Assembly: GCA_033549065.1 (NCBI GenBank)
Contig: JAWSUE010000012.1
Location: 5,222-69,221, forward strand
Origin: Bacillota bacterium
GTDB taxonomy: Bacteria; Bacillota; Dethiobacteria; DTU022
Length of the DNA stretch: 64,000 bases
Reading direction: 5' to 3'
This document shows positions 8,532-33,441 of this stretch, piece after piece. Made by a program: the position numbers and the translations under genes. Below the pieces are notes generated by a model. That model worked only from the letters and a program-made list of their open reading frames with translations, was not told the DNA's origin and made no database searches. Position 1 is the stretch's first letter; each line of letters opens with the position of its first letter.

Positions 8532-9998
8532 ATGGATAAAGATCAAAATAGAAGGAATGTCCAGCCGGTTAAATTTTCAAAAAAGGTGGACTGGCTGGAT
8601 CCAAATCAGGTTGCCACCATACATCAGGCTTCAGTGGATATATTAAGCAAGATCGGAATCAAGATGCCCCACCCAAAAGTTCAACAAATACTGGGTCAGG
8701 CAGGTGCAAGAACTAACAGCACAAGCGGAAAAGTATATATCCCCGAAAAGTTAATTGAAGAGGCCATAAAAAAGGCTCCACAGACTTTTACCCTGGCTGC
8801 CAGGAACCCGGTTAATGACCTGCCGGTTAATGGTGAGTTTGGATACCTTTCGTTAGATGGGAGCGGGCTGCAGGTAATAGACCTGACCAGTGGAGAACTG
8901 CGCAGGTCAACATTGAAGGATCTTGAGGAAGCAGTTACTGTTGCCGATTATTTGAAAGAGATTTCTTTTCTCTGGCCGGTTATCAGCGCCCAGGATCGTC
9001 CCAAGAAGAAACAGCCGCTTTATGAATTATACGCCCAGCTGGCCAATTCAACAAAACATGTCCAGGCGATGACTGCGGTTGATCCTGAAGCGGCAGAAGG
9101 TTCAATCAGAATTGCCAAAGCAGTTGCCGGAAGCTCCGCGGCTCTGCGAAACCGTCCGATAATCTCTAATTTCCAGTGCAGCATCAGTCCCCTTGCTTAC
9201 GATCCTGAAGGGCTGGAAGCAGCAATGATCTTTGCCGATGCCGGTATACCAACCGGTTTTTTAACGATGCAGATCGGCTGTTCAACAGCTCCGGCAACCC
9301 TGGCCGGCAGTCTGGCCCAGGCTAATGCTGAAATCCTGGCCGGGATTGTCTTCCTCCAAACATATAAACCAGGCTGCCCGACTTTTTACGGTTCATGTGC
9401 CACAGTAATGGAACTGCATTCCGGAGCAGTTTGCTGTGGAGGCCCCGAAGACTTTTTGCTGCAGGCAATGTCTGCCCAGATGGCGCGCTACTATAATCTG
9501 CCTTCGAATATCGGCACCTTTGCCACCGGTGCTAAAGCATCAAACTGGCATGCCGGAGTTGAAAATGCCCTTTCGGGGATGTCAAGCATAATGGCCGGTG
9601 CTGATATGATGTGCGGGGCAGGGTTACTGGCCGGAGCATTAATATTTTCCTTCGAGCAGCTTTTGATGGACTGTGAGATATTTGAAATTATCAGGCGTTC
9701 AACCGAAAAGATTATTGTCGATGAAAATACTTTGGCTCTGGAGACAATTGCCGCTGTGGGATCTGACGACCATTTCATGGTTGAACCGCATACCCTGAAG
9801 CATATGCGGGAACTCTGGCAGCCTGCAGTAATGAACCGCAGTCCTTATGGCAAATGGCAGACTGAAGGCTGTCGTGAAGCTGAAGAAAATGCCCGGGAAA
9901 AGGCCTGGTGGATTCTTGAAAATCACAAGCCTGATCAGCTTGACGATAAGCTTAAGGCTGAAATTATAAACATAATCGAAGATCATAGCCAGCACTAG
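8532..9998 (+). CDS. MttB-superfamily (trimethylamine methyltransferase family) methyltransferase, pyrrolysine-free paralog 1
   Basis: 488 aa with full-length MttB-family similarity and no in-frame amber codon. The ATG immediately follows the stop of the upstream gene, and a GAGGT SD is present. Confidence 0.85.
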   Translation: MDKDQNRRNVQPVKFSKKVDWLDPNQVATIHQASVDILSKIGIKMPHPKVQQILGQAGARTNSTSGKVYIPEKLIEEAIKKAPQTFTLAARNPVNDLPVNGEFGYLSLDGSGLQVIDLTSGELRRSTLKDLEEAVTVADYLKEISFLWPVISAQDRPKKKQPLYELYAQLANSTKHVQAMTAVDPEAAEGSIRIAKAVAGSSAALRNRPIISNFQCSISPLAYDPEGLEAAMIFADAGIPTGFLTMQIGCSTAPATLAGSLAQANAEILAGIVFLQTYKPGCPTFYGSCATVMELHSGAVCCGGPEDFLLQAMSAQMARYYNLPSNIGTFATGAKASNWHAGVENALSGMSSIMAGADMMCGAGLLAGALIFSFEQLLMDCEIFEIIRRSTEKIIVDENTLALETIAAVGSDDHFMVEPHTLKHMRELWQPAVMNRSPYGKWQTEGCREAEENAREKAWWILENHKPDQLDDKLKAEIINIIEDHSQH

Positions 9999-12815: not shown

Positions 12816-12907
12816 CAGGCAGCTGCATTTTTTGCATTAAGACTATAAATATAAGATATTGATATAAATAACAGCGGAATTATTGGTATGAGCCGGAGGG
12901 ATTAATA

Positions 12908-13717: not shown

Positions 13718-13746
13718 TAACTGGAAGGATGCGTTACTGAAGTTCT

Positions 13747-14514: not shown

Positions 14515-14607
14515 CCTGCAATGCAGTCATAATGCAGGGAAAAGAAATGAACTTGTAGAAATTCTTCCAAAGATCAAAAATCATGTACAGAAAGGCAGTC
14601 GATATCT

Positions 14608-16140
14608 ATGAAGTTGGCCGGTAACGGTGAATACCGTGGTGATTTGCTAAATAATAAGCCACATGGCAAGGGGACTGTAACCTGGCCGGACGGAAGCCGG
14701 TATAGCGGTGACTGGGAACACGGTTTATTCCATGGTGAGGGCACTTTTATCTGGTCTAACGGTGATAAATATGAAGGTCAGTGGTATAAGGACCGGATGC
14801 ACGGTAAGGGGACCTATATATTTGCCGATTGGCGCCGCTACGAAGGCGAGTGGGAAAATGATCAGATGCAGGGTTACGGCATCTATTACTGGCCGAGCGG
14901 TGAGAAGTACGAAGGAGATTTTGTTGGCGGCCTCTACGAGGGTGATGGAACCTACTCCTGGCCTGACGGGAAAAGTTATCGTGGAGAGTGGAAAAATTCT
15001 TTTCGACACGGTGAAGGAGATATGATCTGGCCAGATGGGAGAACATATACGGGGCAATGGTTTGAAGATCGCCGGCAGGGCAGTGGAGTGCAGATCTGGC
15101 CTGCCGGGAGAAAATATGAAGGGCAATGGAAAGAAGGCCGCATGCATGGAAGCGGTTGTTTTACTTTTACCGATGGTTCAAAATTTGAAGGTTATTTCAA
15201 AGAAGGAGAATTTACTGCAAAGGGCAGTTTCTGCTTTTCTGATGGAGCAATTTTCGGGGGGCGACTTGAGGAAGGGTTGCCTTCCGGAAAAGGGATGGTT
15301 CTTTTTCCCGACGGGAGAAAGTTTAAAGGTGAATTTGAGTACGGAATTGATACCGGACAGGGTGTTTTATACTATCCGAATGGTTCAAAGTACACTGGAG
15401 AGAGTAAAAACAATTTACCGCATGGAGAGGGAACAATAACTTTTCATGATGGTTCCAGATTTTCCGGTTTATTTCGTAAAGGCAGGCCGACAAACAACGG
15501 CAGGTATTATTTTGCCGACGGTTCAACCTATCAGGGTGAGCTGAATTACGGCCGGCCGAACGGAAATGGGGTAATAACCGGTAAAGCGGGTTTTTCCTAC
15601 AGCGGCGATTTCGTTGATGGTTACAGGTCTGGAGATGGAGTTCAGGTGTGGTCGGACGGAGCTGAATATTCAGGCCAGTGGTTTGAAGATGAGATGCATG
15701 GTGAAGGGACCTATAAAGCTGCAAATGGTGATTTTTATGAAGGTCAGTTTGTACAGGGTCGATGGAATGGAAAGGGTACCCTGACCCGCAGTGACGGTTC
15801 GGTATGGCAGGGTGACTGGAAAAATGGTTTACTGCATGGTCGGGTCAGCTGCCGATTTGCCGATGGTGGGCACTATAACGGTGAATTCTCTGAAGGTAAG
15901 TTTTCCGGTCATGGAGTGCGTATATGGCCAGATGGCCGTGAGTATCTGGGCCGATGGTGGAATGGTCATCCAAACGGGAAGGGAACAATGAAACATGCAG
16001 ATGGTCGTTCGCATACCGGGTTCTGGTTTTTTGGACGCGAAATTGGTGTGCATTCTATCGGCTCCGGCAGGGTTGAATCAAAAAGAGGTATCTGGTTTTT
16101 TGGGTACGGTCCATTCCTGGTTCGGGATTACGGTAGATAA
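14608..16140 (+). CDS. MORN-repeat protein
   Basis: About 20 tandem YxGxWxxGxxHGxG MORN repeats. Confidence 0.8.
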   Translation: MKLAGNGEYRGDLLNNKPHGKGTVTWPDGSRYSGDWEHGLFHGEGTFIWSNGDKYEGQWYKDRMHGKGTYIFADWRRYEGEWENDQMQGYGIYYWPSGEKYEGDFVGGLYEGDGTYSWPDGKSYRGEWKNSFRHGEGDMIWPDGRTYTGQWFEDRRQGSGVQIWPAGRKYEGQWKEGRMHGSGCFTFTDGSKFEGYFKEGEFTAKGSFCFSDGAIFGGRLEEGLPSGKGMVLFPDGRKFKGEFEYGIDTGQGVLYYPNGSKYTGESKNNLPHGEGTITFHDGSRFSGLFRKGRPTNNGRYYFADGSTYQGELNYGRPNGNGVITGKAGFSYSGDFVDGYRSGDGVQVWSDGAEYSGQWFEDEMHGEGTYKAANGDFYEGQFVQGRWNGKGTLTRSDGSVWQGDWKNGLLHGRVSCRFADGGHYNGEFSEGKFSGHGVRIWPDGREYLGRWWNGHPNGKGTMKHADGRSHTGFWFFGREIGVHSIGSGRVESKRGIWFFGYGPFLVRDYGR

Positions 16141-16787: not shown

Positions 16788-18581
16788 ATGAAGGAGTTAA
16801 AAAGCATACAGGGGTTTTTACAACAGGTAACCGGAGCTTTTGCCGGAGTGGTTGATATTGAGATCGGGGTTATCAGTAAACGCCTGGAAGTAATAGCCGG
16901 AAGCGGCTATTTCGAAAAAGAGGTTGGGGTGGTTTATGACGAAGGCTGCATGACTTCCAAGATATTGTCATCACCGCATAACGATTCAATATTAGTCGAA
17001 AATACCACTCATGCTGTATGCTGTGCCGACTGTGATTACTCTGCCAGATGTGACGTTCTTGCATTCATGATGATGCCCATCCTTTTTAATGAAGAAAAAA
17101 TAGGCAGTATATCATTGCTGGCTCTTACCGAACAGCAGCGTCGTAAACTGCTGAATCAGTATGAAAAAATGCAAAACTTCCTCAATAAACTATGTAATAT
17201 GATAACTATCTCCCTGAATGAAAAGAAAATGGAAAGCAGGATTACCAGCCTGATGAACCAGTTCAGGGATGTTATTAATTCTGTATATGAAGGGGTTATT
17301 GCCTTCAATTCACAGGGCAGAATAACCAATATCAATAATGCGGCCAGGCAGATTTTAAGTCTTAAGTTGGATAGTCACCTGGGTGAGCATATAAGCGTCC
17401 TCTTTCCTGACTTTAACCTGAATGAAGTTTTCAACAGGCAGGAAACTGAAGACGACAGCCAGTACTACGGTAAAGAGATTATCTATATCGATTCGGATAA
17501 CGAACAGCTGCGCCTTTATTATAATATTACACTTATGTATGAGGATGATCGCATTTCCGGGGCGGTAATATCTTTTCGTAAAAAAGAAGAAGTGGAGGAA
17601 ATGGCCAACCGGATTATCAAGGAAAACAAAAAAACAACTTTTTCGGGGATTATCGGTACCAGCAGTGAATTAAACGAGATAAAGAAAAAGATGAAACTGA
17701 TAGCCTCCACTGATTCAACAGTATTGATTCGTGGTGAAACCGGTACGGGAAAATCAGTATTCGCCCGGGCCATACACGAAGAAAGTCCGAGAAGGGGCAA
17801 GCCTTTTATCTCGATCAGCTGTGCGGCCATTCCTGCTCCCCTGCTGGAATCTGAACTTTTCGGTTATGAAGAGGGTGCGTTTACCGGCGCCCGTAAAGGT
17901 GGAAAACCCGGTAAGTTTGAAATGGCCCATGAAGGAACAATCTTTTTGGACGAGATTGGTGATATGCCCCTTGATTTCCAGGTTAAATTGCTCCATGTGA
18001 TTGAGAATAAAAATATTGCACGAATCGGCGGTGTTTCTTTCAGGGATGTAGATGTTCGCATTATTGCCGCTACCAACCGCAACCTGGAAGAACTGATCGG
18101 GGAAGGGAAATTCAGGGAAGATCTTTTCTATCGTATCAATGTTATACCTTTCACCCTGCCTCTTCTCCGGGATCGCAAGGATGATATTTTGCTCTTAATG
18201 CATCATTTTCTTGATTACTATTCAAAGCGTCTGAATAAAAATGTAATTGGTTTCCAGGATGATGCCAGGGAGGCCATGCTGGTTTACCCCTGGCCGGGGA
18301 ATGTCCGTGAGCTGGAAAATGCCATAGAATACGCCATAAATATCGAATCTGATTCCAAAATTTCAAGGAAGAGCCTTCCCGAAAAAATTACCAGGCATTA
18401 CGGAGTTGCTGATCCAGGTGGATTTGAAGATTTGACAATACTGGAGAAAAAGGCCATTAAAGCGGCTTTGCTTAAATACGGGAATACCACTTTTGGAAAA
18501 GAAAAAGCAGCATCAGCCCTTGGCATTAGCAGGGCAACACTTTATCGAAAACTTAAATCAATCCAGCAGGATGTTTCTTGA
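16788..18581 (+). CDS. sigma-54-dependent transcriptional activator (N-terminal sensor domain, PAS, AAA+ sigma-54 interaction domain, Fis-type HTH)
   Basis: Walker A GETGTGKS, the GAFTGA motif, an [15 protein letters not shown] segment and a C-terminal HTH_8. It is paralogous to the gene at 54622..56421. Confidence 0.9.
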   Translation: MKELKSIQGFLQQVTGAFAGVVDIEIGVISKRLEVIAGSGYFEKEVGVVYDEGCMTSKILSSPHNDSILVENTTHAVCCADCDYSARCDVLAFMMMPILFNEEKIGSISLLALTEQQRRKLLNQYEKMQNFLNKLCNMITISLNEKKMESRITSLMNQFRDVINSVYEGVIAFNSQGRITNINNAARQILSLKLDSHLGEHISVLFPDFNLNEVFNRQETEDDSQYYGKEIIYIDSDNEQLRLYYNITLMYEDDRISGAVISFRKKEEVEEMANRIIKENKKTTFSGIIGTSSELNEIKKKMKLIASTDSTVLIRGETGTGKSVFARAIHEESPRRGKPFISISCAAIPAPLLESELFGYEEGAFTGARKGGKPGKFEMAHEGTIFLDEIGDMPLDFQVKLLHVIENKNIARIGGVSFRDVDVRIIAATNRNLEELIGEGKFREDLFYRINVIPFTLPLLRDRKDDILLLMHHFLDYYSKRLNKNVIGFQDDAREAMLVYPWPGNVRELENAIEYAINIESDSKISRKSLPEKITRHYGVADPGGFEDLTILEKKAIKAALLKYGNTTFGKEKAASALGISRATLYRKLKSIQQDVS

Positions 18582-18583
18582 TA

Positions 18584-18607
18584 TGAGAAAACTTCTCATA
18601 TTGAGAA
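18584..18607. promoter_or_regulatory. putative enhancer (UAS) site: TGAGAA / TTCTCATATTGAGAA palindromic half-sites
   Basis: The perfect inverted repeat TTCTC-N5-GAGAA lies about 160 bp upstream of the sigma-54 promoter, directly after the activator gene. Confidence 0.4.
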
Positions 18608-18661: not shown

Positions 18662-18676
18662 TTCTCATATTGAGAA
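18662..18676. promoter_or_regulatory. second copy of the putative enhancer palindrome TTCTCATATTGAGAA
   Basis: An exact repeat of the 15-bp palindrome, about 90 bp upstream of the -24 element. Confidence 0.4.
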
Positions 18677-18759: not shown

Positions 18760-18775
18760 TGGCATGACTATTGCT
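18760..18775 (+). promoter_or_regulatory. sigma-54 (-24/-12) promoter TGGCAT-N5-TTGCT
   Basis: The GG and GC dinucleotides are spaced exactly as in the TGGCAC-N5-TTGCA consensus. It lies about 160 nt upstream of the BCCT gene. Confidence 0.6.
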
Positions 18776-18937: not shown

Positions 18938-20512
18938 TTGCAAAACGGAGGTAGTCTTTATACAAAACCAACATTTTTAATTGCTCTTATCGTAATGGTA
19001 ATCTTTGTTTTATTAGGTGCTGCTGCGCCGGAGGCTTTTGGTGTCGCAACAGGTAATGTTTTTAGCTATATGGTTGATTCTTGGGGCTGGTCGTTTATCC
19101 TTGGCACCAGTATCTTTCTTTTTTTGATAGTTTTCTTACTGCTAAGTCCTGTTGGTGAGATTAAACTTGGTGGAGACGATGAGAAGCCCGCATACAACAA
19201 TGAAGTCTGGTTTGCTATGCTCTTCAGCTGCGGCATGGGTATCGGCCTGCTTTTCTGGGGTGTATCCGAGCCGATCTGGCATTACATGTGGCCGCCGCTT
19301 GGAGAAGCTGGTAATGCCGGGACTATTCACGTGGCTATGCGCTATGCTTTCTTCCACTGGGGCTTCCACCCCTGGGCTATTTATGCAGTAGTGGCCGGCT
19401 CACTGGCCTACTTCTCTTACCGCAAAGGTTTGCCCATGCTGCTCAGTTCATGCCTGGAGCCTATCCTTGGCCGTAAAGGAATTGAAGGTCCCTGGGGTAT
19501 TCTGGTAAATATCATCGGTGTATTTGCCACCCTCTTCGGCCTGGCCACATCGTTGGGTCTCGGGGCTATGCAGCTTGGCGCCGGATTGGAAAGCCTTTTC
19601 GGTATTCCTAGCACTCCGGCAATTTGGGTTACTATTGTGATAGTTATAACTGCCGCAGCGGTTATCTCAACTTCGACCGGTATTGATCGCGGCATTAAGT
19701 GGTTGAGCCAGATTAATATCGTGGTAGCCGGTTTGTTGATGCTGTTGGTATTTATTGTCGGTCCGACCCTCTTTATTCTTAACCTTTTAACCCACTCTGT
19801 CGGTGATTATCTGCAGAATATCATCTACATGTCGTTCGGACTTGATGCTGCCGGAGAAAATACTGAAGGTTGGTATGGAGCCTGGACCATCTTCTACTGG
19901 GCCTGGTGGATTGCCTGGGCACCTTTTGTAGGTACCTTTATTGCCCGTATTTCGAGAGGCCGGACGATCCGCAACTTTATTGTCGGTGTTATGCTTGTTC
20001 CTGTTGCTGTCAGCGTTGTCTGGTTCTCCGTTTTTGGTGGTTCAGCCCTCTGGATGGAGCACTTTGGCGGTGGCGGTATCGGGGAAGCAGTATCAGCTGA
20101 TTCCGCGATGGGTTTCTTTGCCTTGTTGCAGAATCTGCCGTGGTCTGGCTTACTGATAGTTGTTGCCATGTTTTCGGTGGCAGTGTTCTTCATTACATCC
20201 TCAGACTCGGGGACCTATGTTAATGGTATGCTTACATCAGGCGGAGATCCTAACCCGCCTCTGCCCCTGAGGATTACCTGGGGAGTTCTTGAAGGAGCTA
20301 TCGCTGCCATTCTGCTCTTTACCGGCGGCGCCGGTGCTTTGGGTTCACTTCAGACAGCATCTGTTGTTGGAGGGTTTCCCTTCATGATTATTATGTTCCT
20401 GATGCTATACTGCCTTTTCAAGTCACTCTATGCAGAGATGCGCGATGGTACTCTACCTCTGGAGAAAAAGCGGATCCAGGATGCTCTGAAGGAATTGCAA
20501 GCTGGTAAATAA
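18938..20512 (+). CDS. BCCT family (betaine/carnitine/choline) transporter
   Basis: Twelve-TM profile and the BCCT signature region WTIFYWAWWIAWAPFVG. TTG start with an AAGGAGG SD. Confidence 0.9.
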   Translation: MQNGGSLYTKPTFLIALIVMVIFVLLGAAAPEAFGVATGNVFSYMVDSWGWSFILGTSIFLFLIVFLLLSPVGEIKLGGDDEKPAYNNEVWFAMLFSCGMGIGLLFWGVSEPIWHYMWPPLGEAGNAGTIHVAMRYAFFHWGFHPWAIYAVVAGSLAYFSYRKGLPMLLSSCLEPILGRKGIEGPWGILVNIIGVFATLFGLATSLGLGAMQLGAGLESLFGIPSTPAIWVTIVIVITAAAVISTSTGIDRGIKWLSQINIVVAGLLMLLVFIVGPTLFILNLLTHSVGDYLQNIIYMSFGLDAAGENTEGWYGAWTIFYWAWWIAWAPFVGTFIARISRGRTIRNFIVGVMLVPVAVSVVWFSVFGGSALWMEHFGGGGIGEAVSADSAMGFFALLQNLPWSGLLIVVAMFSVAVFFITSSDSGTYVNGMLTSGGDPNPPLPLRITWGVLEGAIAAILLFTGGAGALGSLQTASVVGGFPFMIIMFLMLYCLFKSLYAEMRDGTLPLEKKRIQDALKELQAGK

Positions 20513-20547
20513 AGAAAAAGCAATATATAGTAGAGTTAAGGTATATT

Positions 20548-20580
20548 CCGCCGGATGCACTTTGCATCCGGCGGTTTATG
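20548..20580 (+). terminator. rho-independent terminator
   Basis: A CCGCCGGATGCA-CTT-TGCATCCGGCGG hairpin is followed by TTTATG. Confidence 0.55.
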
Positions 20581-20624
20581 CCACTCAATAAAAAAAAGAA
20601 TAGTCAGAAAGGAGTGTTTACTTA

Positions 20625-21257
20625 ATGGCAGATTTTGAATCTTTAGCGGGAGCCATTATTGATTGTAATGCGGCAAAAGCCGGCGAGATAACCCAGCAGT
20701 TGGTTGATGAAGGCGTTAAGCCGACAGAGATCATCAACAAAGGGTTAATCAGCGGGATGAATGTGGTAGGAGACCGTTTCAAGAAAGGCGACATGTATGT
20801 TCCCGAAGTGATGATGGCTGCGAAGGCGATGCATGCAGGGATGAATATTGTGAAGCCCTTGCTGGTGGAAGGTGAGAGTTCATCGACCGGCAAGGTAATA
20901 TTGGGCACGGTAGCCGGGGACCTTCATGACATCGGTAAGAACCTGGTTGGGATGATGATGGAATCAGGTGGGATGGAAGTAGTGGACTTAGGTGTGGACG
21001 TTACACCTGAGAAATTTGCGCAGGCTGTCAAAGAGCACAAGGCGCAGGTAGTGGGCTTGAGTGCGCTGTTGACGACGACGATGCTGGCGATGAAAGATAC
21101 GATTGAAGTATTGAAGGAAGAAGGTTTAAGAGATTCGGTCAAGGTTATAGTTGGTGGAGCGCCTGTAACCCAGGACTTTGCCGATGAGATTGGCGCCGAT
21201 GGATGGGCACCTGATGCCGCTTCGGCCAAGGACCTTGCCCAGAAACTGGCCGGTTAA
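20625..21257 (+). CDS. cobalamin (B12)-binding corrinoid protein of methyltransferase systems
   Basis: A B12-binding N-terminal helical cap plus a Rossmann domain carrying the DxHxxG motif (GDLHDIGKN). Confidence 0.9.
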   Translation: MADFESLAGAIIDCNAAKAGEITQQLVDEGVKPTEIINKGLISGMNVVGDRFKKGDMYVPEVMMAAKAMHAGMNIVKPLLVEGESSSTGKVILGTVAGDLHDIGKNLVGMMMESGGMEVVDLGVDVTPEKFAQAVKEHKAQVVGLSALLTTTMLAMKDTIEVLKEEGLRDSVKVIVGGAPVTQDFADEIGADGWAPDAASAKDLAQKLAG

Positions 21258-21301
21258 TCTAACCGCTCTTAAACCAAGTGGAGAAAGGAGAATTTGGGAA
21301 A

Positions 21302-22756
21302 ATGAAAAGTTGCTTTAAAGCACAGGGATCAACTTTCCTGCAGGTTCTCTCGGACGACCAGTGCCGGCGGTTGGTAGCAGCGGCGATGGAAGTTTTGGAA
21401 AGGACCGGAGTTACATATTTAGACGATGAAGCAGTTGACAGGATGAAAAAAGCAGGTTGCTATGTAGACGGTAAAAGGGTTCGGATACCTTTTAAGCTGG
21501 TTGAGAAAGCCCTGAACACTGTTCCGAGAAAGGTTTCACTCTGCAACAGCAGGACCGGTAAAAGGGTTATGGAGATGGAAGGCGGGAATGCTTATTTCGG
21601 AACCGGTTCCGATACTCCCAATTTTATTGATCCTTACACCCAGGAGAGAATTAAAGCAAGCAGGAAGACTGTTCAAATGGCCACCAAGGTCATCGATGCA
21701 CTTCCCAATCTTGATTTTGTAATGTCCCTGGGTATTGTCCAGGATGTTCACCAGCTGGTATACGATCGCTACCAGTTCGAAGCCATGGTCCTGAATACTT
21801 CCAAGCCGATCGTTATTACTGCGATCGATGAGCCAGGCTATTCAGATATCATCAAAATGTGCGAGTTGATAGCCGGCGGGGAAGAGGAATTGAGGAACCA
21901 CCCGTTTCTTACTCTTTATGCAGAGCCGATTTCACCCCTGCAGCACCCCAATGATTCAGCGCGCAAGCTGATGTTGGCAGCGAAGAAGGGACTACCTGTT
22001 GTATATACACCGTGTATCATGGCCGGCGGAACAGTACCGGCTACACTGGCCGGAGCCATGGCTAACGGTCTGGCCGAAAGCCTGAGCGGTTTGGTTCTTA
22101 ACCAGGTGACATCGGAGGGCAGCCCGTTCATCATGGGCGGCGTATTTACCGTTATGGATATGCAGACCACCATATTCTCATATGGTTCACCGGAATTTGA
22201 TCTGATGATGGCTGCTCTGGCAGATATTCATCATTATCTTGATCTTCCCATGTTCGGCACCTGCGGATGTACTGATGCAAAAGTTGTTGACGAACAGGCT
22301 TTGATTGAGGGTGCAATGTCAATTCTGCTTACAGCTCAGGCAGGAGCAAACCTGAACCATGATGTGGGATATATTGAGCATGGTAATACAGCATCGCTTG
22401 AATACCTGACAATCTGTGACGATTTAATTGGTATTGCCCGCAAGATAGTCAGCGGTATTGAGGTAAGCGACAAAACCCTGGCCCTTGATGTAATTGACAA
22501 AGTTGGCCCGGGCGGACACTTCCTCGGTGAGGAGCATACAATGAAGCACTTCAAGGAGCAGACCTGGTATCCCCGCTTGTTTGAGCGCCAGATCTATGAA
22601 AATTGGGCTGCCGACGGTTTTAAAACTCTCTTTGATAAAGCCAATGATAAAGTAATAGATATTCTCGAAAATTATGAACCTGAGCCTCTGCCGAAAGATG
22701 TGCAGCAGAAGATCAAGGATATCATTGCCGAAGCAGAATCTAAATTGAACAAGTAA
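21302..22756 (+). CDS. MttB-superfamily methyltransferase, pyrrolysine-free paralog 2
   Basis: Full-length MttB-family similarity with no amber codon. I prefer the ATG at 21302, 11 nt after GAGAAAGGAG, over the RBS-less GTG at 21278. Confidence 0.85.
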   Translation: MKSCFKAQGSTFLQVLSDDQCRRLVAAAMEVLERTGVTYLDDEAVDRMKKAGCYVDGKRVRIPFKLVEKALNTVPRKVSLCNSRTGKRVMEMEGGNAYFGTGSDTPNFIDPYTQERIKASRKTVQMATKVIDALPNLDFVMSLGIVQDVHQLVYDRYQFEAMVLNTSKPIVITAIDEPGYSDIIKMCELIAGGEEELRNHPFLTLYAEPISPLQHPNDSARKLMLAAKKGLPVVYTPCIMAGGTVPATLAGAMANGLAESLSGLVLNQVTSEGSPFIMGGVFTVMDMQTTIFSYGSPEFDLMMAALADIHHYLDLPMFGTCGCTDAKVVDEQALIEGAMSILLTAQAGANLNHDVGYIEHGNTASLEYLTICDDLIGIARKIVSGIEVSDKTLALDVIDKVGPGGHFLGEEHTMKHFKEQTWYPRLFERQIYENWAADGFKTLFDKANDKVIDILENYEPEPLPKDVQQKIKDIIAEAESKLNK

Positions 22757-22783
22757 ACCTTCTACATATTGGTGGGATATATC

Positions 22784-24799
22784 ATGGCAAACCTGGCTTT
22801 AGGGATTGACACAGGGGGAACATTTACCGATGGTGTAATATTCGACCTGGAAAAAAAATCAGTAAAAGCCAAAACGAAAGTGGAAACGACCAGGCATAAT
22901 CTGACCTTTGCTGTAAACCGATGTCTAGATCAACTGATTGAAGCATTTCAGGAGAGCAACAGCGGACAGGTAGATATAGGGCAGATCAAGATGGTTTCCT
23001 TATCCACTACACTAGCCACCAATGCCATAGTTGAAGGTCAGGGAGCCGAGGTAGGTCTGATCCAGATCGGTTTTGAAGCCCGGCAGGACCTACCTACTCC
23101 CTATGTCGCAGTAGTACCGGGTGGTTGCAATATCAAAGGCAGGATCAGGGAAGAACTTAATCTCGAAGCGATCGAGAAGGCAATCCTGGATATGAAGGAT
23201 CATGTTGATGCCTTTGCTGTATCCGGGTACTTGAGTATCAGGAATCCGATCCAGGAAATGCAGGTTGTCGAGATGATCCAGCGGCTCACCGGTTACCCGG
23301 TTGTTGCAGCACACCAACTGAGTACAGATCTTGGAATGCATGAGAGAACTGTCACGGCAATTCTCAATGCCCGACTGATGCCCCTGATTACCGATTTAAT
23401 GAATTCTGTCAAGCAGGGTATGGAGAGGCTTAACATCGAGGCTCCGCTCATGGTGGTCCGGGGTGATGGCAGTTTGATCAGCGAAACGAAAGCCCGGGAA
23501 AAGCCGATCGAGACAATCTTGTCCGGACCGGCCGCCAGTATAATCGGAGCGTTGACGTTAACCGGTGTTGAAGAAGGCATTGTCATTGATATGGGAGGGA
23601 CCACCACTGATGTTGCCGTTCTCAGAAATGGCAGGCCTTCGCTGAATAAAGAAGGGGCGAGTGTGGGAGGATGGTTAACCAGGGTCAAGGCAGCCAAGAT
23701 CACGACTATCGGCCTTGGTGGAGACAGCCTCATCCAGGTATCGAAAAATGCAGTACTTTCAATCGGACCGCAAAGGGTATTTCCTTTATGTTGGATCGCT
23801 TCAAAGTACCCTTACCTGACTGCTGAACTGGAAGAAATCAGGCCGATTGACTATGCTATTATGGATACTCAGCCATCGATCATTTTGAACTACATCAGGG
23901 ATCCGCTTAATATTAAACTCACCGCAACCGAAAAGCAAATAATAGATTTGATCAAAGACGGGCCTCATACACTCCATTACATCAGCCGGAAATTGCAGAA
24001 AGAGATTGACCTTTTGCCCTGGCATCGACTGGTTAATGTTGCTTCCGTTCACCGGGCGTCGTTGACTCCAACAGATATTTTGCATTTCCAGGGCAAACTG
24101 GAATTATGGGATATGAAAGCTGCTGAATTGGGAACGGCAATGCTTGCAACCCGTTACCGTCAGTCACCAGCTGAATTTGCTGAAAAAGTTTTGGAAGAGA
24201 TTCTTTTTAAACTTGCTGCGCTAACCCTGGACCGTCTTCTTGAAGAAGAGGGTGTAGTCCTATCACTTGCGGATGAAAAAGCTGCCAACTATATGCTGAG
24301 GAAGATAATTAGCAGAGATAATGGAGATACTAATAGTCAGGTTAAATTTTTTACCAGTCTGAATCATCCCATTGTAGCAGTTGGAGCTCCTGTCGATGCT
24401 TATTTTCCTGAACTGGCCGACAGGCTTCAGGCAAAACTTTTTCTGCCACAGTATGCCGATGTGGCCAATGCTGTTGGAACTGTCAGCGGTCAGGCAGTTG
24501 AAAGGATCTCAATATTAATTAAGCCCGGAGAGGGTGGAGGTTTTTTGGTTCACAGCCCTTACCAGAGAGAATTTTTTATGATCTTTGATGAAGCAGTAGA
24601 TTATGCATACCGAGAAGGTAAAAAATATGTTTATGAACAGGCTTCTGCAGGAGGAGCGGTTGAGATAGAAACATTGGTTGAAAGACAGGATCGCTACAGC
24701 AAGATTACTTCTACAGCAGAAGGAGATTCAATTGACAATAAACTCTTTATTGAAAGTATAATAGAGATATCAGCCGTTGGTAAACCCTGGAGCGGCTAA
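22784..24799 (+). CDS. hydantoinase/oxoprolinase (ASKHA ATPase) family protein
   Basis: The N-terminus LALGIDTGGTFTDGV is typical of hydantoinase-A/acetone-carboxylase-beta ATPases. About 670 aa. I prefer the ATG at 22784. Confidence 0.7.
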   Translation: MANLALGIDTGGTFTDGVIFDLEKKSVKAKTKVETTRHNLTFAVNRCLDQLIEAFQESNSGQVDIGQIKMVSLSTTLATNAIVEGQGAEVGLIQIGFEARQDLPTPYVAVVPGGCNIKGRIREELNLEAIEKAILDMKDHVDAFAVSGYLSIRNPIQEMQVVEMIQRLTGYPVVAAHQLSTDLGMHERTVTAILNARLMPLITDLMNSVKQGMERLNIEAPLMVVRGDGSLISETKAREKPIETILSGPAASIIGALTLTGVEEGIVIDMGGTTTDVAVLRNGRPSLNKEGASVGGWLTRVKAAKITTIGLGGDSLIQVSKNAVLSIGPQRVFPLCWIASKYPYLTAELEEIRPIDYAIMDTQPSIILNYIRDPLNIKLTATEKQIIDLIKDGPHTLHYISRKLQKEIDLLPWHRLVNVASVHRASLTPTDILHFQGKLELWDMKAAELGTAMLATRYRQSPAEFAEKVLEEILFKLAALTLDRLLEEEGVVLSLADEKAANYMLRKIISRDNGDTNSQVKFFTSLNHPIVAVGAPVDAYFPELADRLQAKLFLPQYADVANAVGTVSGQAVERISILIKPGEGGGFLVHSPYQREFFMIFDEAVDYAYREGKKYVYEQASAGGAVEIETLVERQDRYSKITSTAEGDSIDNKLFIESIIEISAVGKPWSG

Positions 24800-24863
24800 T
24801 CATAAACAATATTGTAGAAGGAGGTTTGGTTACCGGTACATTTCAAAACCGGTAAAGCGAAAA

Positions 24864-25658
24864 ATGATTATTATCGGAGAATTGATTAATTCAACCCGCA
24901 AGGCGATCAAGAAAGCTATAGACGAGCAGGATGTGGCCTATCTTCAGGATCTGGCCCTGAAACAGGAAGAGGCGGGAGCAGACTTCATTGATGTCAATGC
25001 CGGAGCATATGTCCATGATGAGGCAAAACACCTGGTCTGGTTAGTGGAGAAAGTCCAGGAGGTCGTTAGCAAACCTCTGGCTCTTGATAGTCCTGATCCG
25101 AAAGCTTTGCAGGAAGCATTAAAAGTACATAAAGGTGTACCCATGATTAACTCAATAAGCCTCGAGAAAGAACGTTACTCACAGTTGGTTCCCCTGGTCA
25201 AGGAAGCAGGAACTGAAGTGATTGCTCTCTGCATGAGCGATGAAGGTATGCCTGAAACCGCCGATGACCGGCTGGATGTAGCGAAAAGGCTTCTTGACAA
25301 CCTCGATAAAGATGGAGTTGATCTGACAAAGGTATTTCTAGATCCACTGATCAAACCGGTTAGTGTCAATGGAGAATATGGGCCGCAGGTCTTGGAAGCT
25401 ATTGAGAAAATAAAAAACCTCGAATCCGGCTGCCATATCACCAGCGGGCTGAGCAATATTTCTTTTGGTTTGCCACACCGCGCTCTTTTGAACCAGGCAT
25501 TTATCGTGCTTGCCATGGGACGCGGGATGGATTCAGCGATAGTTGATCCGCTGGACAAGAAGAAGATGAGCCTGGTAAAAGCAGCGGAGGTTATTCTAAA
25601 TCTCGATCCCTATGCCATGAATTATCTGAAGGCGTCCCGTGCCGATAAACTGATTTAA
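24864..25658 (+). CDS. methyltetrahydrofolate:corrinoid methyltransferase (MtrH/MtgA pterin-binding family)
   Basis: Starts MIIIGELINSTRK, typical of MtrH-family and methyl-THF:corrinoid methyltransferases, followed by a pterin-binding TIM-barrel. The upstream TTG-initiated extension carries no homology. Confidence 0.8.
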   Translation: MIIIGELINSTRKAIKKAIDEQDVAYLQDLALKQEEAGADFIDVNAGAYVHDEAKHLVWLVEKVQEVVSKPLALDSPDPKALQEALKVHKGVPMINSISLEKERYSQLVPLVKEAGTEVIALCMSDEGMPETADDRLDVAKRLLDNLDKDGVDLTKVFLDPLIKPVSVNGEYGPQVLEAIEKIKNLESGCHITSGLSNISFGLPHRALLNQAFIVLAMGRGMDSAIVDPLDKKKMSLVKAAEVILNLDPYAMNYLKASRADKLI

Positions 25659-25709
25659 CAGGACAGGCTGATTTTCTAGTTTAGTTTTAATTCGCGTGTT
25701 TAGGAAAGG

Positions 25710-27143
25710 GTGATAAGAATGATCAATCGCGATTTGAAAGCTGTAGACTACCTGAAGAGCGAAGATCTGGAAAAAATTCACCAGGCTACATTAACCGTAC
25801 TGGAGAAGAACGGTATAGAGTTTTACTCCCAGGAAGCAAGGGATATATTGAAGAAAAATGGAGCAAAAGTAGAAGGTGAGAGAGTCTTTTTCCCGCCTGA
25901 ACTGGTCATGGAAAAGATTGCCCTGGCTCCGTCTGAGTTTACTCTTCATGCCAGAAATCCTGAGAAAAATGTTGTTGTCGGTGGCAATAATACTGTTCAT
26001 GCACCAGGTTACGGTTCTCCATATGTGATGGATTATGTTCAGAACGCCAGGAGAAATGCTAACTATGATGACTATATAGCTTTTACAAAGCTCGCCGGCC
26101 GGAGTGAAAACCTTGATGTTGTCGGAGGCGTTCTTGTTGAGCCAAATGATATCCCCGATCATCTGAGACACGCAAAAATGTTTCATGCTGCTGTAAAATA
26201 TACAGACAAGTGCCTGATGGGCAGCGCTATGGGTAGTAAAAAAGCTCAGGAAACTATCGAGATGGCTTCGATTATATACGGGGGGATCGATACCGTTCGT
26301 ACAAACCCCTGCCTGATCTCACTGATCAATACCAATAGTCCCCTGGAATTCGATTCCCGAATGCTCGATGCGCTGATGGTTTATGCCCGTAATAATCAGC
26401 CGGTAATTATTGCTGCTCTGGCGATGACCGGCACAACATCGCCGGTTACCCTGGCCGGTTCACTGGTCCAGCAGGCGGCGGAGATCCTCTCTGGTATCAT
26501 ATTTGCCCAGATGGTCAGCCCCGGGACTCCGGTGGTCTTCGGTTCCGCGTCAAGTATCGTCGATTTACGGACAGGCAACCTGGCCATCGGCAGCCCCGAA
26601 TCAGTAAAGATGTTCTCGGTCATAGCGCAGTTAGCAAGATTCTACGGACTGCCATCACGCGGCGGTGGAGCGCTTACTGATGCCATAATTACAGACAGCC
26701 AGAGCGGTTATGAGTCAATGATGGTTTTAATGAATACAATTCTCAGCGGGACAAACTTCATCCTACACTCTGCCGGGCTGCTCGAGAATTATATGACCAT
26801 GTCATATGAAAAATTTGTTATAGATGATGAAATGCTCGGGATGGTTAAGTCATATGCAGAGGGTTTCCCGATCAATGAAGATACCCTGGCTGTTGATACG
26901 CTGCTTAGGGTTGGCAGTGGAGGCAATTTCATTGCAGATGAACATACCTTCAATCACATGCGGGATATGCGCCTGCCGTTTATCAGTGCTAGGATTAATT
27001 ATGCCGGGGCAACAGATTTGACTGATACTCCCCAGCGTGCGCATGAATATGTTAAATCGGTTCTGCAGGATTTCCAGAATCCACCCTTGGATGAAAAAGT
27101 TGAAGCTGAACTTGACAGCTATATTGAGAAGCTGAGCAAATAG
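25710..27143 (+). CDS. MttB-superfamily methyltransferase, pyrrolysine-free paralog 3
   Basis: 477 aa with MttB-family similarity throughout and no amber codon. Confidence 0.85.
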   Translation: MIRMINRDLKAVDYLKSEDLEKIHQATLTVLEKNGIEFYSQEARDILKKNGAKVEGERVFFPPELVMEKIALAPSEFTLHARNPEKNVVVGGNNTVHAPGYGSPYVMDYVQNARRNANYDDYIAFTKLAGRSENLDVVGGVLVEPNDIPDHLRHAKMFHAAVKYTDKCLMGSAMGSKKAQETIEMASIIYGGIDTVRTNPCLISLINTNSPLEFDSRMLDALMVYARNNQPVIIAALAMTGTTSPVTLAGSLVQQAAEILSGIIFAQMVSPGTPVVFGSASSIVDLRTGNLAIGSPESVKMFSVIAQLARFYGLPSRGGGALTDAIITDSQSGYESMMVLMNTILSGTNFILHSAGLLENYMTMSYEKFVIDDEMLGMVKSYAEGFPINEDTLAVDTLLRVGSGGNFIADEHTFNHMRDMRLPFISARINYAGATDLTDTPQRAHEYVKSVLQDFQNPPLDEKVEAELDSYIEKLSK

Positions 27144-27317: not shown

Positions 27318-27347
27318 TTGACATTTGTTGCTTGCACAGGCTATAAT
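27318..27347 (+). promoter_or_regulatory. sigma-70-type promoter TTGACA-N18-TATAAT
   Basis: Consensus -35 and -10 hexamers about 60 nt upstream of the cyclase-family gene. Confidence 0.55.
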
Positions 27348-27409: not shown

Positions 27410-29074
27410 ATGAGTAAAAACATGATTGATTTGCTCAGTAAAGCAAAATGGTATGACCTGACTCAGCCTCTAAGCATTTTTACTCCCCCCTGGCCTGGTG
27501 AGATGCCGCTGCAGGTTCATTTTTTCAAGCGGGTCACCGGTTCTTATCATGGTGGGCAGGGCGCAAACGGTCAGTTGATCGAATGGTCGAATAATACGGG
27601 GACCCACCTTGTCGGACCGAGAGCTTTTCATTCGGGCATGAAGACGATAGCCGATATCCCCCTGGAGGACATCTGCGGCGAAGGTGTTATTGTCGATATT
27701 TCAGCTGATGTATCTGATTACAGTCTTTATACCCCGGAAATGATCGAGAAACGGGTTACAGTAAAAGAAGGCGATATCCTGCTTATTAACACCGGCTACC
27801 ATAAATATACCTTTGATCAGCCGGATGTTAAAAACCCGAAAGGGCAGGGAGGAATTGATAACAAGGAATTTTCCTACCTGGTTCGCCACCCCGGTCCCGC
27901 ACCCGGATTTTTTGAATGGGCTTTGAAAAAGAAACTGAAAGTTATTGGCGTTGACTGCGGTTGTGCCGAACACCCAATGAATACCAATATCCGCTATATG
28001 CATGCAGCAGAATTCAAGAAAGCTGAAGATAAACTGAAGGAAACTCATGGTAAAACCTGGGATGAAATGTTCCCGGTCGATGAGTATTATAAGCTGACTC
28101 ATCAAACTATGCCCAAAGCCGGGTTGCTTCTGGCCGAATCTTTGGGGGGGCAGATTAAAGAGCTGAACAATCAGCGAGCCTGGATCATAATCGGGGCACT
28201 ACCTTTCGTAGAAGTGGAATCAGCCTGGTCAAGGGTTGCCGCGGCTAAGGCTCCTGATGGAGTAAGCGAAGATGAGTTTTTTGCAGCGATGAATAAAGCA
28301 AAACTTTATGATCTCTCAGTACCCTTCAGTGTGCAGACACCACAGTGGGCAAACTATATCCCACTTATTGCTCATTACACCAAGCGTGTAGGCGGGCAGT
28401 ATTTCGGCTTAGGTCGTAATAATGCCCACTGTAAGTGCAGCTTCCACATTGCAACCCACATGGATGGTGAACCTCACTTCTACATTAACGGAAAAACGAT
28501 TGGTCAGACCCCCTTTGAATACTGGATCGGCCCTGCCGCTATTGCCGATATATCAGAAATGGTCAGCGATACCAGTGTATACAGCCCCGAGATGATCGAA
28601 TCGGTAGTTGATGTAGAAGAAGGAGACATCCTTATCGTCAAGACCGGATATGGGAAATATGGCTGGGCTAGCCCTGATTCGGATGAATTCAGGTACATGA
28701 TCCGCCATCCAGGTCCTTCGCCGGACTTCGCTGAATGGTGCATGAAGAAGAAGATCAAGTGGCTCGGCATTGACTGTGTGGCCATGGAACACCCGATGAA
28801 TACGATCCAGCGTATCTTCCATCCGAAGACCTTTGAAGAAGCAAACCGGAAACTGAAAGAGAAGTACGGTAAGGACTGGGATGAAATGTACCCGCTGGAC
28901 AAGTACTACCAGGATATGCACCTCAATCTCTTCCCGCATGGTGTTGTCCATGCCGAAAACCTGGGCAAGGATCTAAATGATCTGGAAGGTGGCCGTTACT
29001 TCCTCGGCTGTTTCCTCCAGCGAGGAATGGAACTTGCTTCATGCTGGGCACGTTTTATAGCCTGGAAAGAGTAA
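27410..29074 (+). CDS. tandem-duplicated cyclase-family (kynurenine formamidase-like, PF04199-type) metal hydrolase
   Basis: Two homologous halves of about 270 aa (for example HPGPAPGFFEWALKKKLKVIGVDCGCAEHPMNT versus HPGPSPDFAEWCMKKKIKWLGIDCVAMEHPMNT). A GGAGG SD lies 5 nt upstream of the ATG at 27410. Confidence 0.7.
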   Translation: MSKNMIDLLSKAKWYDLTQPLSIFTPPWPGEMPLQVHFFKRVTGSYHGGQGANGQLIEWSNNTGTHLVGPRAFHSGMKTIADIPLEDICGEGVIVDISADVSDYSLYTPEMIEKRVTVKEGDILLINTGYHKYTFDQPDVKNPKGQGGIDNKEFSYLVRHPGPAPGFFEWALKKKLKVIGVDCGCAEHPMNTNIRYMHAAEFKKAEDKLKETHGKTWDEMFPVDEYYKLTHQTMPKAGLLLAESLGGQIKELNNQRAWIIIGALPFVEVESAWSRVAAAKAPDGVSEDEFFAAMNKAKLYDLSVPFSVQTPQWANYIPLIAHYTKRVGGQYFGLGRNNAHCKCSFHIATHMDGEPHFYINGKTIGQTPFEYWIGPAAIADISEMVSDTSVYSPEMIESVVDVEEGDILIVKTGYGKYGWASPDSDEFRYMIRHPGPSPDFAEWCMKKKIKWLGIDCVAMEHPMNTIQRIFHPKTFEEANRKLKEKYGKDWDEMYPLDKYYQDMHLNLFPHGVVHAENLGKDLNDLEGGRYFLGCFLQRGMELASCWARFIAWKE

Positions 29075-29140: not shown

Positions 29141-29175
29141 AACCGGTTGGATCTACTCAACCGGTTTATTTTTTT
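29141..29175. terminator. bidirectional terminator hairpin AACCGGTTG...CAACCGGTT
   Basis: The stem overlaps the stop codon of the minus-strand gene. It is followed by T8 on the plus strand and by an A/T-rich stretch with T5 on the minus strand. Confidence 0.5.
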
Positions 29176-30316
29176 TCAGTTCAACTGTATCATCGTTGGC
29201 CTGCTTTTTCATTGTTCGGCTAATATAAAATGTAATCATGTAATAAACAGCTAAACCGGCAAGAAATCCAAATGCCATGTTGGTTAAAACTGAAACTAAA
29301 ACAGTTACAGCCAGGACAATCATATTCCAGTTTAACGAAACATCTCTTGAAAATTTAATCAGTTCTATACCAACCATAAACATCATTGCACCGATAATTG
29401 CCATGGGGAATAGTGCAAAAAGGCCGGCGATTGAAGTGGCCAGTAAAATACCCATAGCAATTTCGATCATGCCTTCAATAATATTTGCTCCTCCGGTTCG
29501 GGCTCCGAAGTAATATTGGCCAGCCAAACCACCGGCTCCATGACATAAAGGCATGCCGCCTAAAAAAGGAAATAGAATATTCATTAATCCCATATTCAAA
29601 GATAAACGTCCTTCGCCAACTGACCGGCCAGGAAAGTATGAGTTTATCAAAGATGATGTTGATATCACAGCGTTGGTTGCTGTCAGCGGTATTTGAGCAA
29701 ATCCAGCTAAAAGCATGGTTTCCCAGACTTCAATAGGCTTAAAGAAAGTCATGGAGGGCAGTGAATATTCCAGGCCGCTCAAATCAGTTAAGTCTCCCCT
29801 GAAGTACATGATTGCTATACCTAAAACCACCAGAGTAACAGCTGCCGGCATGTAACGATTATTACGAAGCAGTAGTATAACTATAACCGATATGATGCCG
29901 AGCAACCAAAAATCAGAGACCATTTTTAGCGCTTCAATTGCCAGTAATCCTCCGAGAGCAACCTGAATCCCGCGTATTACAGATTTCGGAGTAAACCGGG
30001 CTATATGCTTCATTAACCCTGTTAGTGCAAAAATAATCCAGACAATTCCCATCCCAAAGCCTGAAGCATAGACCATTGATGGAGTCCAACCCTGGGCTAT
30101 GGCGACAACTGCCAAAACTTTCATCGGTTCGATTGGCATGGGCAATTTATATATCAGCCCTGTAATGATATTGGCCAGACCTATAGTTACCAGTAAACCT
30201 GAAGGGTTTAAACCACATACTACAATATAACCTATGGCGAGAGGTATTAATGTTCCAAAATCTCCCATAGCCCCTGATAGTTCTCTTAAATTAAATTCAT
30301 ATGCTCCGATTTGCAT
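29153..30316 (-). CDS. putative molybdate/tungstate (or sulfate-type) transporter, MOT1/SulP-related membrane protein
   Basis: About 11 TM helices with an N-terminal ELSGAMGDFGTLIPL motif. It is co-directional with and immediately downstream of tupC. Confidence 0.45.
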   Translation of the reverse strand: MQIGAYEFNLRELSGAMGDFGTLIPLAIGYIVVCGLNPSGLLVTIGLANIITGLIYKLPMPIEPMKVLAVVAIAQGWTPSMVYASGFGMGIVWIIFALTGLMKHIARFTPKSVIRGIQVALGGLLAIEALKMVSDFWLLGIISVIVILLLRNNRYMPAAVTLVVLGIAIMYFRGDLTDLSGLEYSLPSMTFFKPIEVWETMLLAGFAQIPLTATNAVISTSSLINSYFPGRSVGEGRLSLNMGLMNILFPFLGGMPLCHGAGGLAGQYYFGARTGGANIIEGMIEIAMGILLATSIAGLFALFPMAIIGAMMFMVGIELIKFSRDVSLNWNMIVLAVTVLVSVLTNMAFGFLAGLAVYYMITFYISRTMKKQANDDTVELKKNKPVE

Positions 30317-32808: not shown

Positions 32809-32974
32809 GTTTTTTCCTCCTGAATTTGATTTGCTATTACTTTTATTGTAGGACAAGAATTAATTTATATTACCCTTTCACCGGTCTGCAGCGGTTATTT
32901 GTTATACTGCCTCCTTTCCGGGTTGTATATTTTGTAATAAAGGTTGTGAACATGCTCTATCATTCAATGGTCTT

Positions 32975-33007: not shown

Positions 33008-33030
33008 GGCCTGACATAAAAGCATGATCA

Positions 33031-33132: not shown

Positions 33133-33157
33133 TAAATATTTAGTTATATTCAAAATA

Positions 33158-33418: not shown

Positions 33419-33441
33419 ATTATACTCACTAAATATGAGTG

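Follow-up and report, generated by a model that had tools for sequence, protein, structure and literature searches.

The 64,000-nt stretch of contig JAWSUE010000012.1 (Bacillota bacterium, assembly GCA_033549065.1) analysed here, called the window below, carries six uninterrupted genes on the forward strand at positions 18938–27143. Together they form a real, intact B12-dependent operon for glycine betaine demethylation, with a layout that has been published for other anaerobes. Genes were called by scanning the window for open reading frames (ORFs) combined with Pfam and NCBIfam profile searches. Ribosome-binding sites and the lengths of homologs served to correct the start codons. The operon consists of the following genes:

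18938..20512, + strand: BCCT (betaine/carnitine/choline) transporter, probably of the glycine-betaine type (PF02028, E 3e-184)
20625..21257, + strand: corrinoid protein, MtgC-like, with B12-binding_2 and B12-binding domains and the motif DLHDIG at residue 99 (nt 20919–20936)
21302..22756, + strand: MttB-1, MttB-superfamily methyltransferase without pyrrolysine (Pyl), from a conserved clade with Cys at the Pyl position (PF06253, 337 bits, E 1.5e-100)
22784..24799, + strand: HydA, stand-alone HyuA-type ASKHA ATPase of the hydantoinase/oxoprolinase A family, 671 aa (Hydant_A_N and Hydantoinase_A)
24864..25658, + strand: MTII, methylcorrinoid:tetrahydrofolate (THF) methyltransferase, MtgA-like, Pterin_bind/MeTr, 264 aa (PF00809, E 1e-24)
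25719..27143, + strand: MttB-2, predicted glycine betaine:corrinoid methyltransferase, MtgB ortholog (PF06253, E 3e-153)

Intergenic gaps within the operon measure 27–112 bp. The initial annotation, made from the letters alone, had listed the transporter, a corrinoid protein with a DxHxxG motif, two MttB genes free of in-frame UAG, a methyl-THF methyltransferase and a third MttB paralog at 8532–9998. These genes are all present, with family scores far beyond chance, and their family assignments are secure. The list was, however, incomplete, since the 2-kb HyuA-type gene at 22784–24799, which fills about a quarter of 18938–27143 between MttB-1 and MTII, had been omitted. For the second MttB gene the start has to be moved, likely to ATG 25719 rather than GTG 25710. 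From the label "MtrH/MtgA-type" given to MTII the second half can be kept (PF00809 88 bits, cutoff 25.5; NF005719 340.9 bits, cutoff 259), whereas a Pfam scan gave no MtrH match (PF02007) at E ≤ 0.001. Its start was placed at ATG 24864 from the 264-aa homolog length.

Profile scoring places all three MttB ORFs, at full length, in PF06253 (MttB superfamily, COG5598) with 337, 511 and 338 bits for MttB-1, MttB-2 and MttB-3 against a cutoff of 25. The Pyl-type trimethylamine (TMA) methyltransferase equivalog TIGR02369 scores 422, 388 and 429, all below its cutoff of 525, and the residue in the Pyl column is Cys, Leu and Ala, respectively. No in-frame internal stop was found in any of the three reading frames. 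TAG is an ordinary stop in the window, ending 12 of its 48 genes including MttB-2 and MttB-3, and ARAGORN found no tRNA-Pyl in the window, where tRNA-Sec is the sole tRNA. Given this use of TAG and the uninterrupted MttB frames, pyrrolysine read-through was rejected. The proposed corrinoid-dependent, Pyl-free module for N-methyl transfer to THF, in which more than one MttB paralog draws on a single corrinoid protein, a single MTII and a single BCCT transporter, is supported.

The best NCBIfam model for the transporter is glycine betaine uptake (NF047988, 613.7 bits, cutoff 650). Other sub-models score lower (choline BetT 418, carnitine CaiT 269 bits), and generic BCCT models lie well above cutoff. 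Its gene starts with TTG, preceded by an AAGGAGG ribosome-binding site. The corrinoid protein exceeds the cutoff of TIGR02370 (223 vs. 215 bits) and stays below those of the MtgC equivalogs NF047995 and NF047996 (217 and 228 bits vs. 310 and 370).

MttB-2 can be assigned most closely. Its alignment with Desulfitobacterium hafniense MtgB (2QNE, 9YCE) gives 496 bits at 48% identity. In MtgB, mutagenesis and a crystal structure containing the substrate have established Y97, R312, H348 and F356 as the glycine betaine-binding residues, and the F356Y variant is fully active in vitro (PMC13080624). The aligned residues of MttB-2 are Y, R, H and Y. For comparison across genomes, a BLASTP-based synteny table of 83 related loci was compiled (80 from a genome scan, three from exact look-ups), and the pattern YRH[YF] is kept in 33/33 MtgB-clade members from these loci. 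Because all four binding positions are conserved, the glycine betaine substrate becomes predictable and MttB-2 is a predicted glycine betaine methyltransferase. The earlier statement that substrates cannot be read from sequence does not hold for this paralog.

Judged by sequence, the core steps are firmly supported. The BCCT transporter would import glycine betaine, MttB-2 would methylate the Co(I) corrinoid protein with it, leaving dimethylglycine, and the Pterin_bind MTII would hand the methyl group to THF for the Wood–Ljungdahl and one-carbon pathways. All in all, the locus is probably a sigma-54-controlled operon that combines glycine betaine import with N-methyl transfer to THF via the corrinoid protein. 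The MtgB/MtgC/MtgA system of D. hafniense Y51 (PMC13080624) is similar in its MtgB-like enzyme with the retained binding residues, next to a corrinoid protein and a pterin-binding MTII. It differs in that MttB-1 and HydA resemble none of its components and the corrinoid protein of the window misses the MtgC cutoffs.

A closer counterpart has been described in "Ca. Formimonas warabiya" DCMF. Its cluster Ga0180325_114734–114742 encodes a corrinoid protein of 210 aa, a methyltransferase (MTI) of 488 aa, an "unknown" hydantoinase of 668 aa, an MTII of 265 aa, an MTI of 471 aa and a BCCT transporter, and all cluster proteins reached a much higher abundance with glycine betaine than with dichloromethane (PMC9768040). 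Synteny links its first half to Sporomusa ovata DSM 2662/An4 and "Ca. Frackibacter", and its second half to the proven operons of D. hafniense and Acetobacterium woodii. Holland et al. 2022 speculate that multiple MTIs split glycine betaine and dimethylglycine among them, and leave the hydantoinase unexplained (PMC9768040). Compared by published order and sizes, DCMF, S. ovata and Frackibacter agree with the window: corrinoid protein of ~210, MTI of ~485, HydA of ~670, MTII of ~265 and second MTI of ~473 residues, with one or more BCCT transporters. Frackibacter and Fuchsiella loci are part of our synteny set (L061, L064). Unlike DCMF, the window has a single corrinoid protein, without the extra upstream corrinoid protein and third MTI, its BCCT gene lies upstream instead of downstream, and it stems from another lineage, a soda-lake Syntrophomonadaceae-like Bacillota metagenome-assembled genome (MAG). 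The locus itself contributes only a further lineage, since its architecture had already been reported, together with proteomic induction on glycine betaine, for DCMF, Sporomusa and Frackibacter (PMC9768040).

MttB-1 differs clearly from MttB-2. With 29% identity to D. hafniense MtgB and 34% to Methanosarcina barkeri Pyl-MttB it stands at much the same distance from both, and it shows S, F, H and G in the Y97/R312/H348/F356 columns, so that Phe318 replaces the carboxylate-binding R312. The equivalent of R312 is conserved in MtgB, MtcB, MtpB, MtyB and MthB, and the conservation of H348 is likewise reported (PMC13080624). MttB-1 thus deviates at R312 from every characterised member without Pyl. 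Cys323 (nt 22268–22270) aligns with pyrrolysine and is invariant in the clade, within the motif FGT[CA]GC[TS]D[AS]K, and the acidic residues E208 and D354 are conserved. Orthologs with 65–93% identity occur in Syntrophomonadaceae-like MAGs, Halanaerobiales, Spirochaetota, Desulfosporosinus and others. A library-wide HMMER search delivered 139 full-length representatives nearest to MttB-1 as the wider subfamily. The R312 position is F, W or Y in 127 of these, E208, H353 and D354 are present in most, and the Pyl position is Cys in 68. By these alignments MttB-1 is part of a large subfamily, with an Arg-less pattern that is found in no characterised member named in PMC13080624 and related papers. 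A zinc site formed by E208, C238 and C323 in analogy to MtaB was also considered, as none of the three positions varies in the MttB-1 clade or in a second, 45%-identical clade. It was dropped as a main argument, because C238 is mostly G or A among the 139 representatives and the Pyl-position Cys occurs in only 68.

With Pyl-MttB of Methanosarcina barkeri (PDB 7XCL) the enzymes of the window share superfamily and TIM barrel, but have no UAG and carry Cys, Leu or Ala at the Pyl position. The motif following this position in MttB-1 triggers the Rfam model PYLIS_3 (mttB) at 22268–22367 (+) with 45.9 bits against a gathering threshold of 38. In this match the Cys323 codon UGU stands opposite the UAG of the model, several of the model's base pairs become non-canonical, and an amber codon is absent. 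As a functional Pyl insertion element the match was rejected for the substituted codon and the broken pairs, since it mostly reflects primary-sequence coding homology to Pyl-mttB. It would represent a false positive for PYLIS annotation.

The same features could be taken as a sign that MttB-1 is a Pyl-independent TMA methyltransferase, acting on TMA released from glycine betaine by betaine reductase. Its Pyl-site motif FGTCGCTDAKVVDEQA resembles GSOSDAKVPDDQA of MttB (O = pyrrolysine), the PYLIS model passes its threshold with UGU on UAG, and the R312 position is aromatic in both proteins. Against 7XCL, however, MttB-1 reaches 213 bits and 34% identity, and MttB-2 exceeds it with 226 bits and 35%, so that MttB-1 could not be retained as the paralog closest to Pyl-MttB. 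DCMF induces the ortholog on glycine betaine and forms no TMA, and its species description tested TMA, which is not among the substrates used. Genes for glycine, sarcosine or betaine reductase were not found in the window. We regard this function as highly improbable.

HydA is, by its motifs and model, a complete HyuA-type ATPase that is predicted to be active. The ASKHA phosphate-1 and phosphate-2 motifs GIDTGGTFTD and DMGGTTTD are invariant, and the AF2 model is confident (pLDDT 83, pTM 0.80). The whole protein adopts the HyuA fold. Its best structural matches, over ~490 residues, are HyuA subunits, and shorter ASKHA matches are dehydratase activators and a diol-dehydratase reactivase. Profiles gave in addition a weak match to MutL/GlmL, accessory proteins of B12 mutases. 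With only three Cys in total, HydA has no CxxC-type or Fe–S motif, and the Pfam scan found no RACo match. From the HyuA subunits of hydantoinase, oxoprolinase and caprolactamase and of acetone and acetophenone carboxylases (5L9W, 5SVB, 6YRA) it differs by an identity of 18–20%, by its place in a corrinoid methyltransferase operon and by the missing partner: neither a HyuB/Hydantoinase_B gene nor a fusion was found among the annotated ORFs of the window and the called genes of the related loci L001–L003. An NCBI "Bacillota bacterium" MAG contains a 100% identical copy, and an exact-sequence look-up of the HydA of the window returned no record.

Across the 83 loci, MttB-1 and HydA are the most conserved part of the module in several phyla, and together with the corrinoid protein and MTII they make up its evolutionarily conserved four-gene core. 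Wherever the sequence reaches far enough upstream, HydA is immediately preceded by an MttB-1 ortholog, with two exceptions (L039 and L063). Most loci have the corrinoid protein gene upstream of MttB-1 and MTII downstream of HydA. At the species level, soda-lake "Syntrophomonadaceae bacterium" MAGs come nearest, and only in the Syntrophomonadaceae/Bacillota group do MtgB-clade and cyclase genes follow. In Halanaerobiales, Frackibacter, Fuchsiella and Spirochaetota an extra corrinoid protein and a second Cys-type MttB, 45% identical to MttB-1, are located upstream. In Halanaerobiales, genes for the methylene-THF reductase MetV/MetF and HdrA/MvhD-like proteins follow the module, which fits a methyl-THF oxidation fed by it.

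One Halanaerobiales MAG illustrates this arrangement (L049, 12870–21691). The order corrinoid protein, MttB, corrinoid protein, MttB-1, HydA and MTII is continued there by an FAD oxidoreductase, an MvhD/ferredoxin protein, MetV, MetF (methylene-THF reductase), a 1031-aa HdrA-like protein and MvhD. The downstream genes look like a methyl-THF-oxidising reductase complex, possibly electron-bifurcating, linked to the methyltransferase module. Many other MAG contigs (L004–L037) begin ~1.6 kb before HydA, where the MttB-1 gene starts or close by. This suggests that assemblies repeatedly broke there, possibly because corrinoid protein genes are duplicated just upstream in those genomes.

The two exceptions deserve attention. 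In the closely syntenic relative L039 (JAUWPV010000002.1, MAG CSMAG_2485, 1400–14900) corrinoid protein, HydA, MTII and cyclase genes are intact, while the activator, the BCCT transporter and all three MttB genes are absent. The 5'-nucleotidase, aminotransferase IV, MORN and tRNA_edit genes are kept as well. The missing genes fall at four separate positions without runs of N, and their absence reflects either several precise losses or an odd assembly. In L063, HydA adjoins an amidase gene and the glycine-cleavage genes, and the neighbourhood contains no corrinoid genes.

As an ASKHA-type ATPase encoded within a corrinoid methyltransferase operon, in the slot usual for an activating enzyme, HydA recalls RamA, RACE and RACo, from which it is distinguished by the lack of an Fe–S domain, the absent RACo match and another ASKHA subfamily. 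It could maintain the activity of the corrinoid protein instead of RamA/RACE, a role whose chances we put somewhat below even. It could accordingly be formulated that HydA is a new Fe–S-free, ATP-dependent corrinoid activator or reactivase and the fourth component of the system, with MttB-1 as a second (glycine) betaine methyltransferase. In the window and all 83 loci a search for ferredoxin motifs of RamA/RACE revealed only MvhD/HdrA-like and methylene-THF-reductase-associated ORFs, none of them a RamA/RACE-like ORF near the module. The persistence of corrinoid protein, HydA and MTII in L039 after loss of all MttB genes and the weak MutL/GlmL match point in the same direction. On the other hand, with three Cys and no redox cofactor motif HydA cannot itself deliver an electron. 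Its best structural matches are subunits that phosphorylate small molecules, for no member of the HyuA family is an action on corrinoid proteins known, and the HydA of L063 has no corrinoid gene beside it. We consider this formulation a serious one, if a little less than probable.

Alternatively, HydA might act on the substrate and activate it, in the manner of the kinase MthK that serves MthB in Eubacterium limosum, but this seems rather doubtful. There, MthK offers a precedent for an ATP-using accessory protein encoded with an MttB member (PMC12155760, PMC8604678). MthK is, however, a serine-kinase-like choline kinase and HydA an ASKHA/HyuA protein, and MthB keeps the R312-equivalent Arg that MttB-1 has lost.

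For MttB-1, which would act on a different N-methyl substrate than MttB-2, the tertiary amine dimethylglycine is the leading candidate, even if a tentative one. Dimethylglycine is demethylated by DCMF and by Sporomusa, both of which have the MttB-1/HydA half, and MtgB does not use it. In D. hafniense and A. woodii betaine demethylation stops at dimethylglycine. The active-site pattern, with no Arg and conserved Glu, Asp and His, would suit a protonated tertiary amine. Demethylation of dimethylglycine by MttB-1 and maintenance of the corrinoid protein by HydA do not exclude each other. What the sequences show directly are gene identities, residue patterns, synteny and promoter elements; the substrates of MttB-1 and of the third paralog as well as the role of HydA are what we infer from them. 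Combined into one proposal, MttB-1 and HydA might perform a Pyl-independent, ATP-assisted demethylation of a non-quaternary amine, likeliest dimethylglycine, with HydA as substrate activator or as a new class of corrinoid reactivator. We put this forward with reserve, as an idea that is rather unlikely in its full extent.

Several observations weigh against this proposal and the picture of the operon as a whole. The identity of MttB-2 to characterised MtgB is just 48%. The dimethylglycine correlation comprises four organisms (DCMF, Sporomusa, D. hafniense and A. woodii), with clade membership taken from published descriptions. In Halanaerobiales no MtgB-clade gene lies beside the BCCT gene, so that the Cys-type MttB may itself use glycine betaine there. 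L039, with corrinoid protein, HydA and MTII but no MttB, suggests that HydA is tied to the corrinoid protein and not to the substrate of MttB-1, and the HydA of L063 lies away from corrinoid genes. Co-transcription of the operon genes and the ends of the operon are predicted.

If the proposal is true, the MttB-1/HydA pair adds a new component type to corrinoid methyltransferase systems, a HyuA-like ATPase that accompanies one MttB clade across Bacillota, Halanaerobiales and Spirochaetota. Dimethylglycine demethylation is the missing second step of anaerobic betaine demethylation, and we know of no enzyme for it. Glycine betaine ranks among the major osmolytes. In saline and soda-lake sediments, methylamine and methane precursors are controlled by its degradation under anaerobic conditions. 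As the window and the 83 loci define the pair together with its diagnostic residues, candidates for biochemistry are easy to choose.

The third paralog lies outside the operon:

8532..9998, + strand: MttB-3, orphan MttB paralog without Pyl (PF06253, 338 bits, E 6e-101)

MttB-3 is 28–33% identical to every reference and shows G, N, C and A in the Y97/R312/H348/F356 columns of MtgB. No corrinoid protein or MTII gene adjoins its orthologs, and it is presumably an orphan MTI that borrows both proteins from the operon. It begins on the base directly after the stop of a 677-aa UshA-like metallophosphoesterase/5'-nucleotidase (6498–8531, +). L084 shows the same pairing. The ortholog of GCA_900198705.1, at 63% identity, does not, and lies beside genes for an NhaC-type transporter and a sigma-54 activator. 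A phosphorylated or nucleotide-linked methylamine is conceivable as substrate, by analogy, because MthB uses phosphocholine.

The three paralogs had originally been read as a multi-substrate module, in which MttB-1, MttB-2 and MttB-3 each act on a different quaternary amine (proline betaine, carnitine, gamma-butyrobetaine, choline derivatives or a new one) and share corrinoid protein, MTII and transporter. Every characterised MttB without Pyl acts on a quaternary amine. In E. limosum (PMC12155760, PMC8604678) such enzymes share a corrinoid protein and an MTII in the systems MthB/MthC/MthA/MthK and MtqC/MtqA with MtpB, MtcB and MtyB, the pair MtqC/MtqA serving several MTIs. The orphan state of the MttB-3 orthologs and the deviation of MttB-1 and MttB-3 from MtgB at the substrate-binding positions also agree with such a module. 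For MttB-2, though, the substrate is predictable as glycine betaine. For MttB-1 and MttB-3 a quaternary amine is an assumption, as both lack the anion-binding Arg reported to be conserved in each of the five quaternary-amine enzymes characterised so far. The one transporter fits the glycine-betaine type best, glycine betaine induces the orthologous DCMF cluster as a whole, and this reading leaves the obligatory partner HydA out of account. Such a module is therefore unlikely, and glycine betaine demethylation, possibly extended to dimethylglycine, is preferred.

The regulation of the operon is indicated by features upstream of the BCCT gene:

16788..18581, + strand: sigma-54-dependent activator with PAS, AAA+ Sigma54_activat and HTH_8 domains, PrdR-like (Sigma54_activat E 4e-69; TF_PrdR 393 bits, below the cutoff of 795)
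18575–18589, 18593–18607 and 18662–18676, + strand: three copies of the palindrome TTCTCATATTGAGAA, found by motif count
18760..18774, + strand: sigma-54 -24/-12 element TGGCATGACTATTGC (TGGCA-N6-TTGC), 164 bp upstream of the BCCT start

The activator is the probable regulator of the operon, and the gene order tRNA_edit–EBP–BCCT recurs in L002, L003 and L084. The promoter elements are held by the 356-bp gap between activator and BCCT genes. All three matches of TTCTCATATTGAGAA in the window, against 0.26 expected, fall into this intergenic region, 85–185 bp upstream of the -24/-12 element, and are probably upstream binding sites of the activator. The loose -24/-12 pattern is not enriched in the window (8 found vs. 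8.6 expected), hence the promoter call at 18760 relies on position and context and not on motif enrichment. With -24/-12 element, upstream palindromes and adjacent activator gene all present, the operon is predicted to be sigma-54-dependent. In Sporomusa sphaeroides the same SigL motif drives betaine clusters, and sigma-54 control was established by multi-omics (PMC12456013).

Downstream, 233 bp separate MttB-2 from a further gene, or 266 bp if the refined start of that gene is taken:

27410..29074, + strand: tandem "cyclase" PF04199, a kynurenine-formamidase-like metal hydrolase (Pfam and PDB matches)

A perfect TTGACA-18-TATAAT promoter at 27318–27347 precedes it and a terminator-like hairpin (29141–29166) lies at its 3' side. 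The cyclase gene probably forms a transcription unit of its own, which read-through from the operon may reach. It follows MttB-2 in Syntrophomonadaceae MAGs with 83–89% identity and is kept in L039 too. The metal motif H..TH.D...H occurs only in the C-terminal domain, the N-terminal copy reading NTGTHLVGPRAFH.

Other observations in the window concern genes apart from the operon. The tRNA-Sec gene at 35999–36092 (+), found by ARAGORN and Rfam, indicates that the organism makes selenoproteins. An alpha-amylase ORF at 44632–46017 (+, 461 aa) matches Pfam only from profile position 84, while its L039 homolog is full-length with 574 aa; the copy in the window may be N-terminally truncated or its start mis-set. 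Two tandem Moco/tungsten riboswitch aptamers, at 33018–33143 (-) and 33429–33553 (-) with 65.8 and 61.7 bits, are located upstream of a molybdate/tungstate-type ABC operon (binding protein 31897–32856, permease, ATPase) and a MOT1-family transporter (29153–30316). An aldehyde:ferredoxin oxidoreductase is encoded at 50792–52546. It stands, with SSF transporter and saccharopine dehydrogenase genes, 3' of a class-III aminotransferase gene (52963–54303, -). Upstream of the latter lies a second sigma-54 -24/-12 element, TGGCACTAATATTGC at 54346–54360 (-), divergent from a second sigma-54 activator of the GAF/PAS type at 54622–56421.

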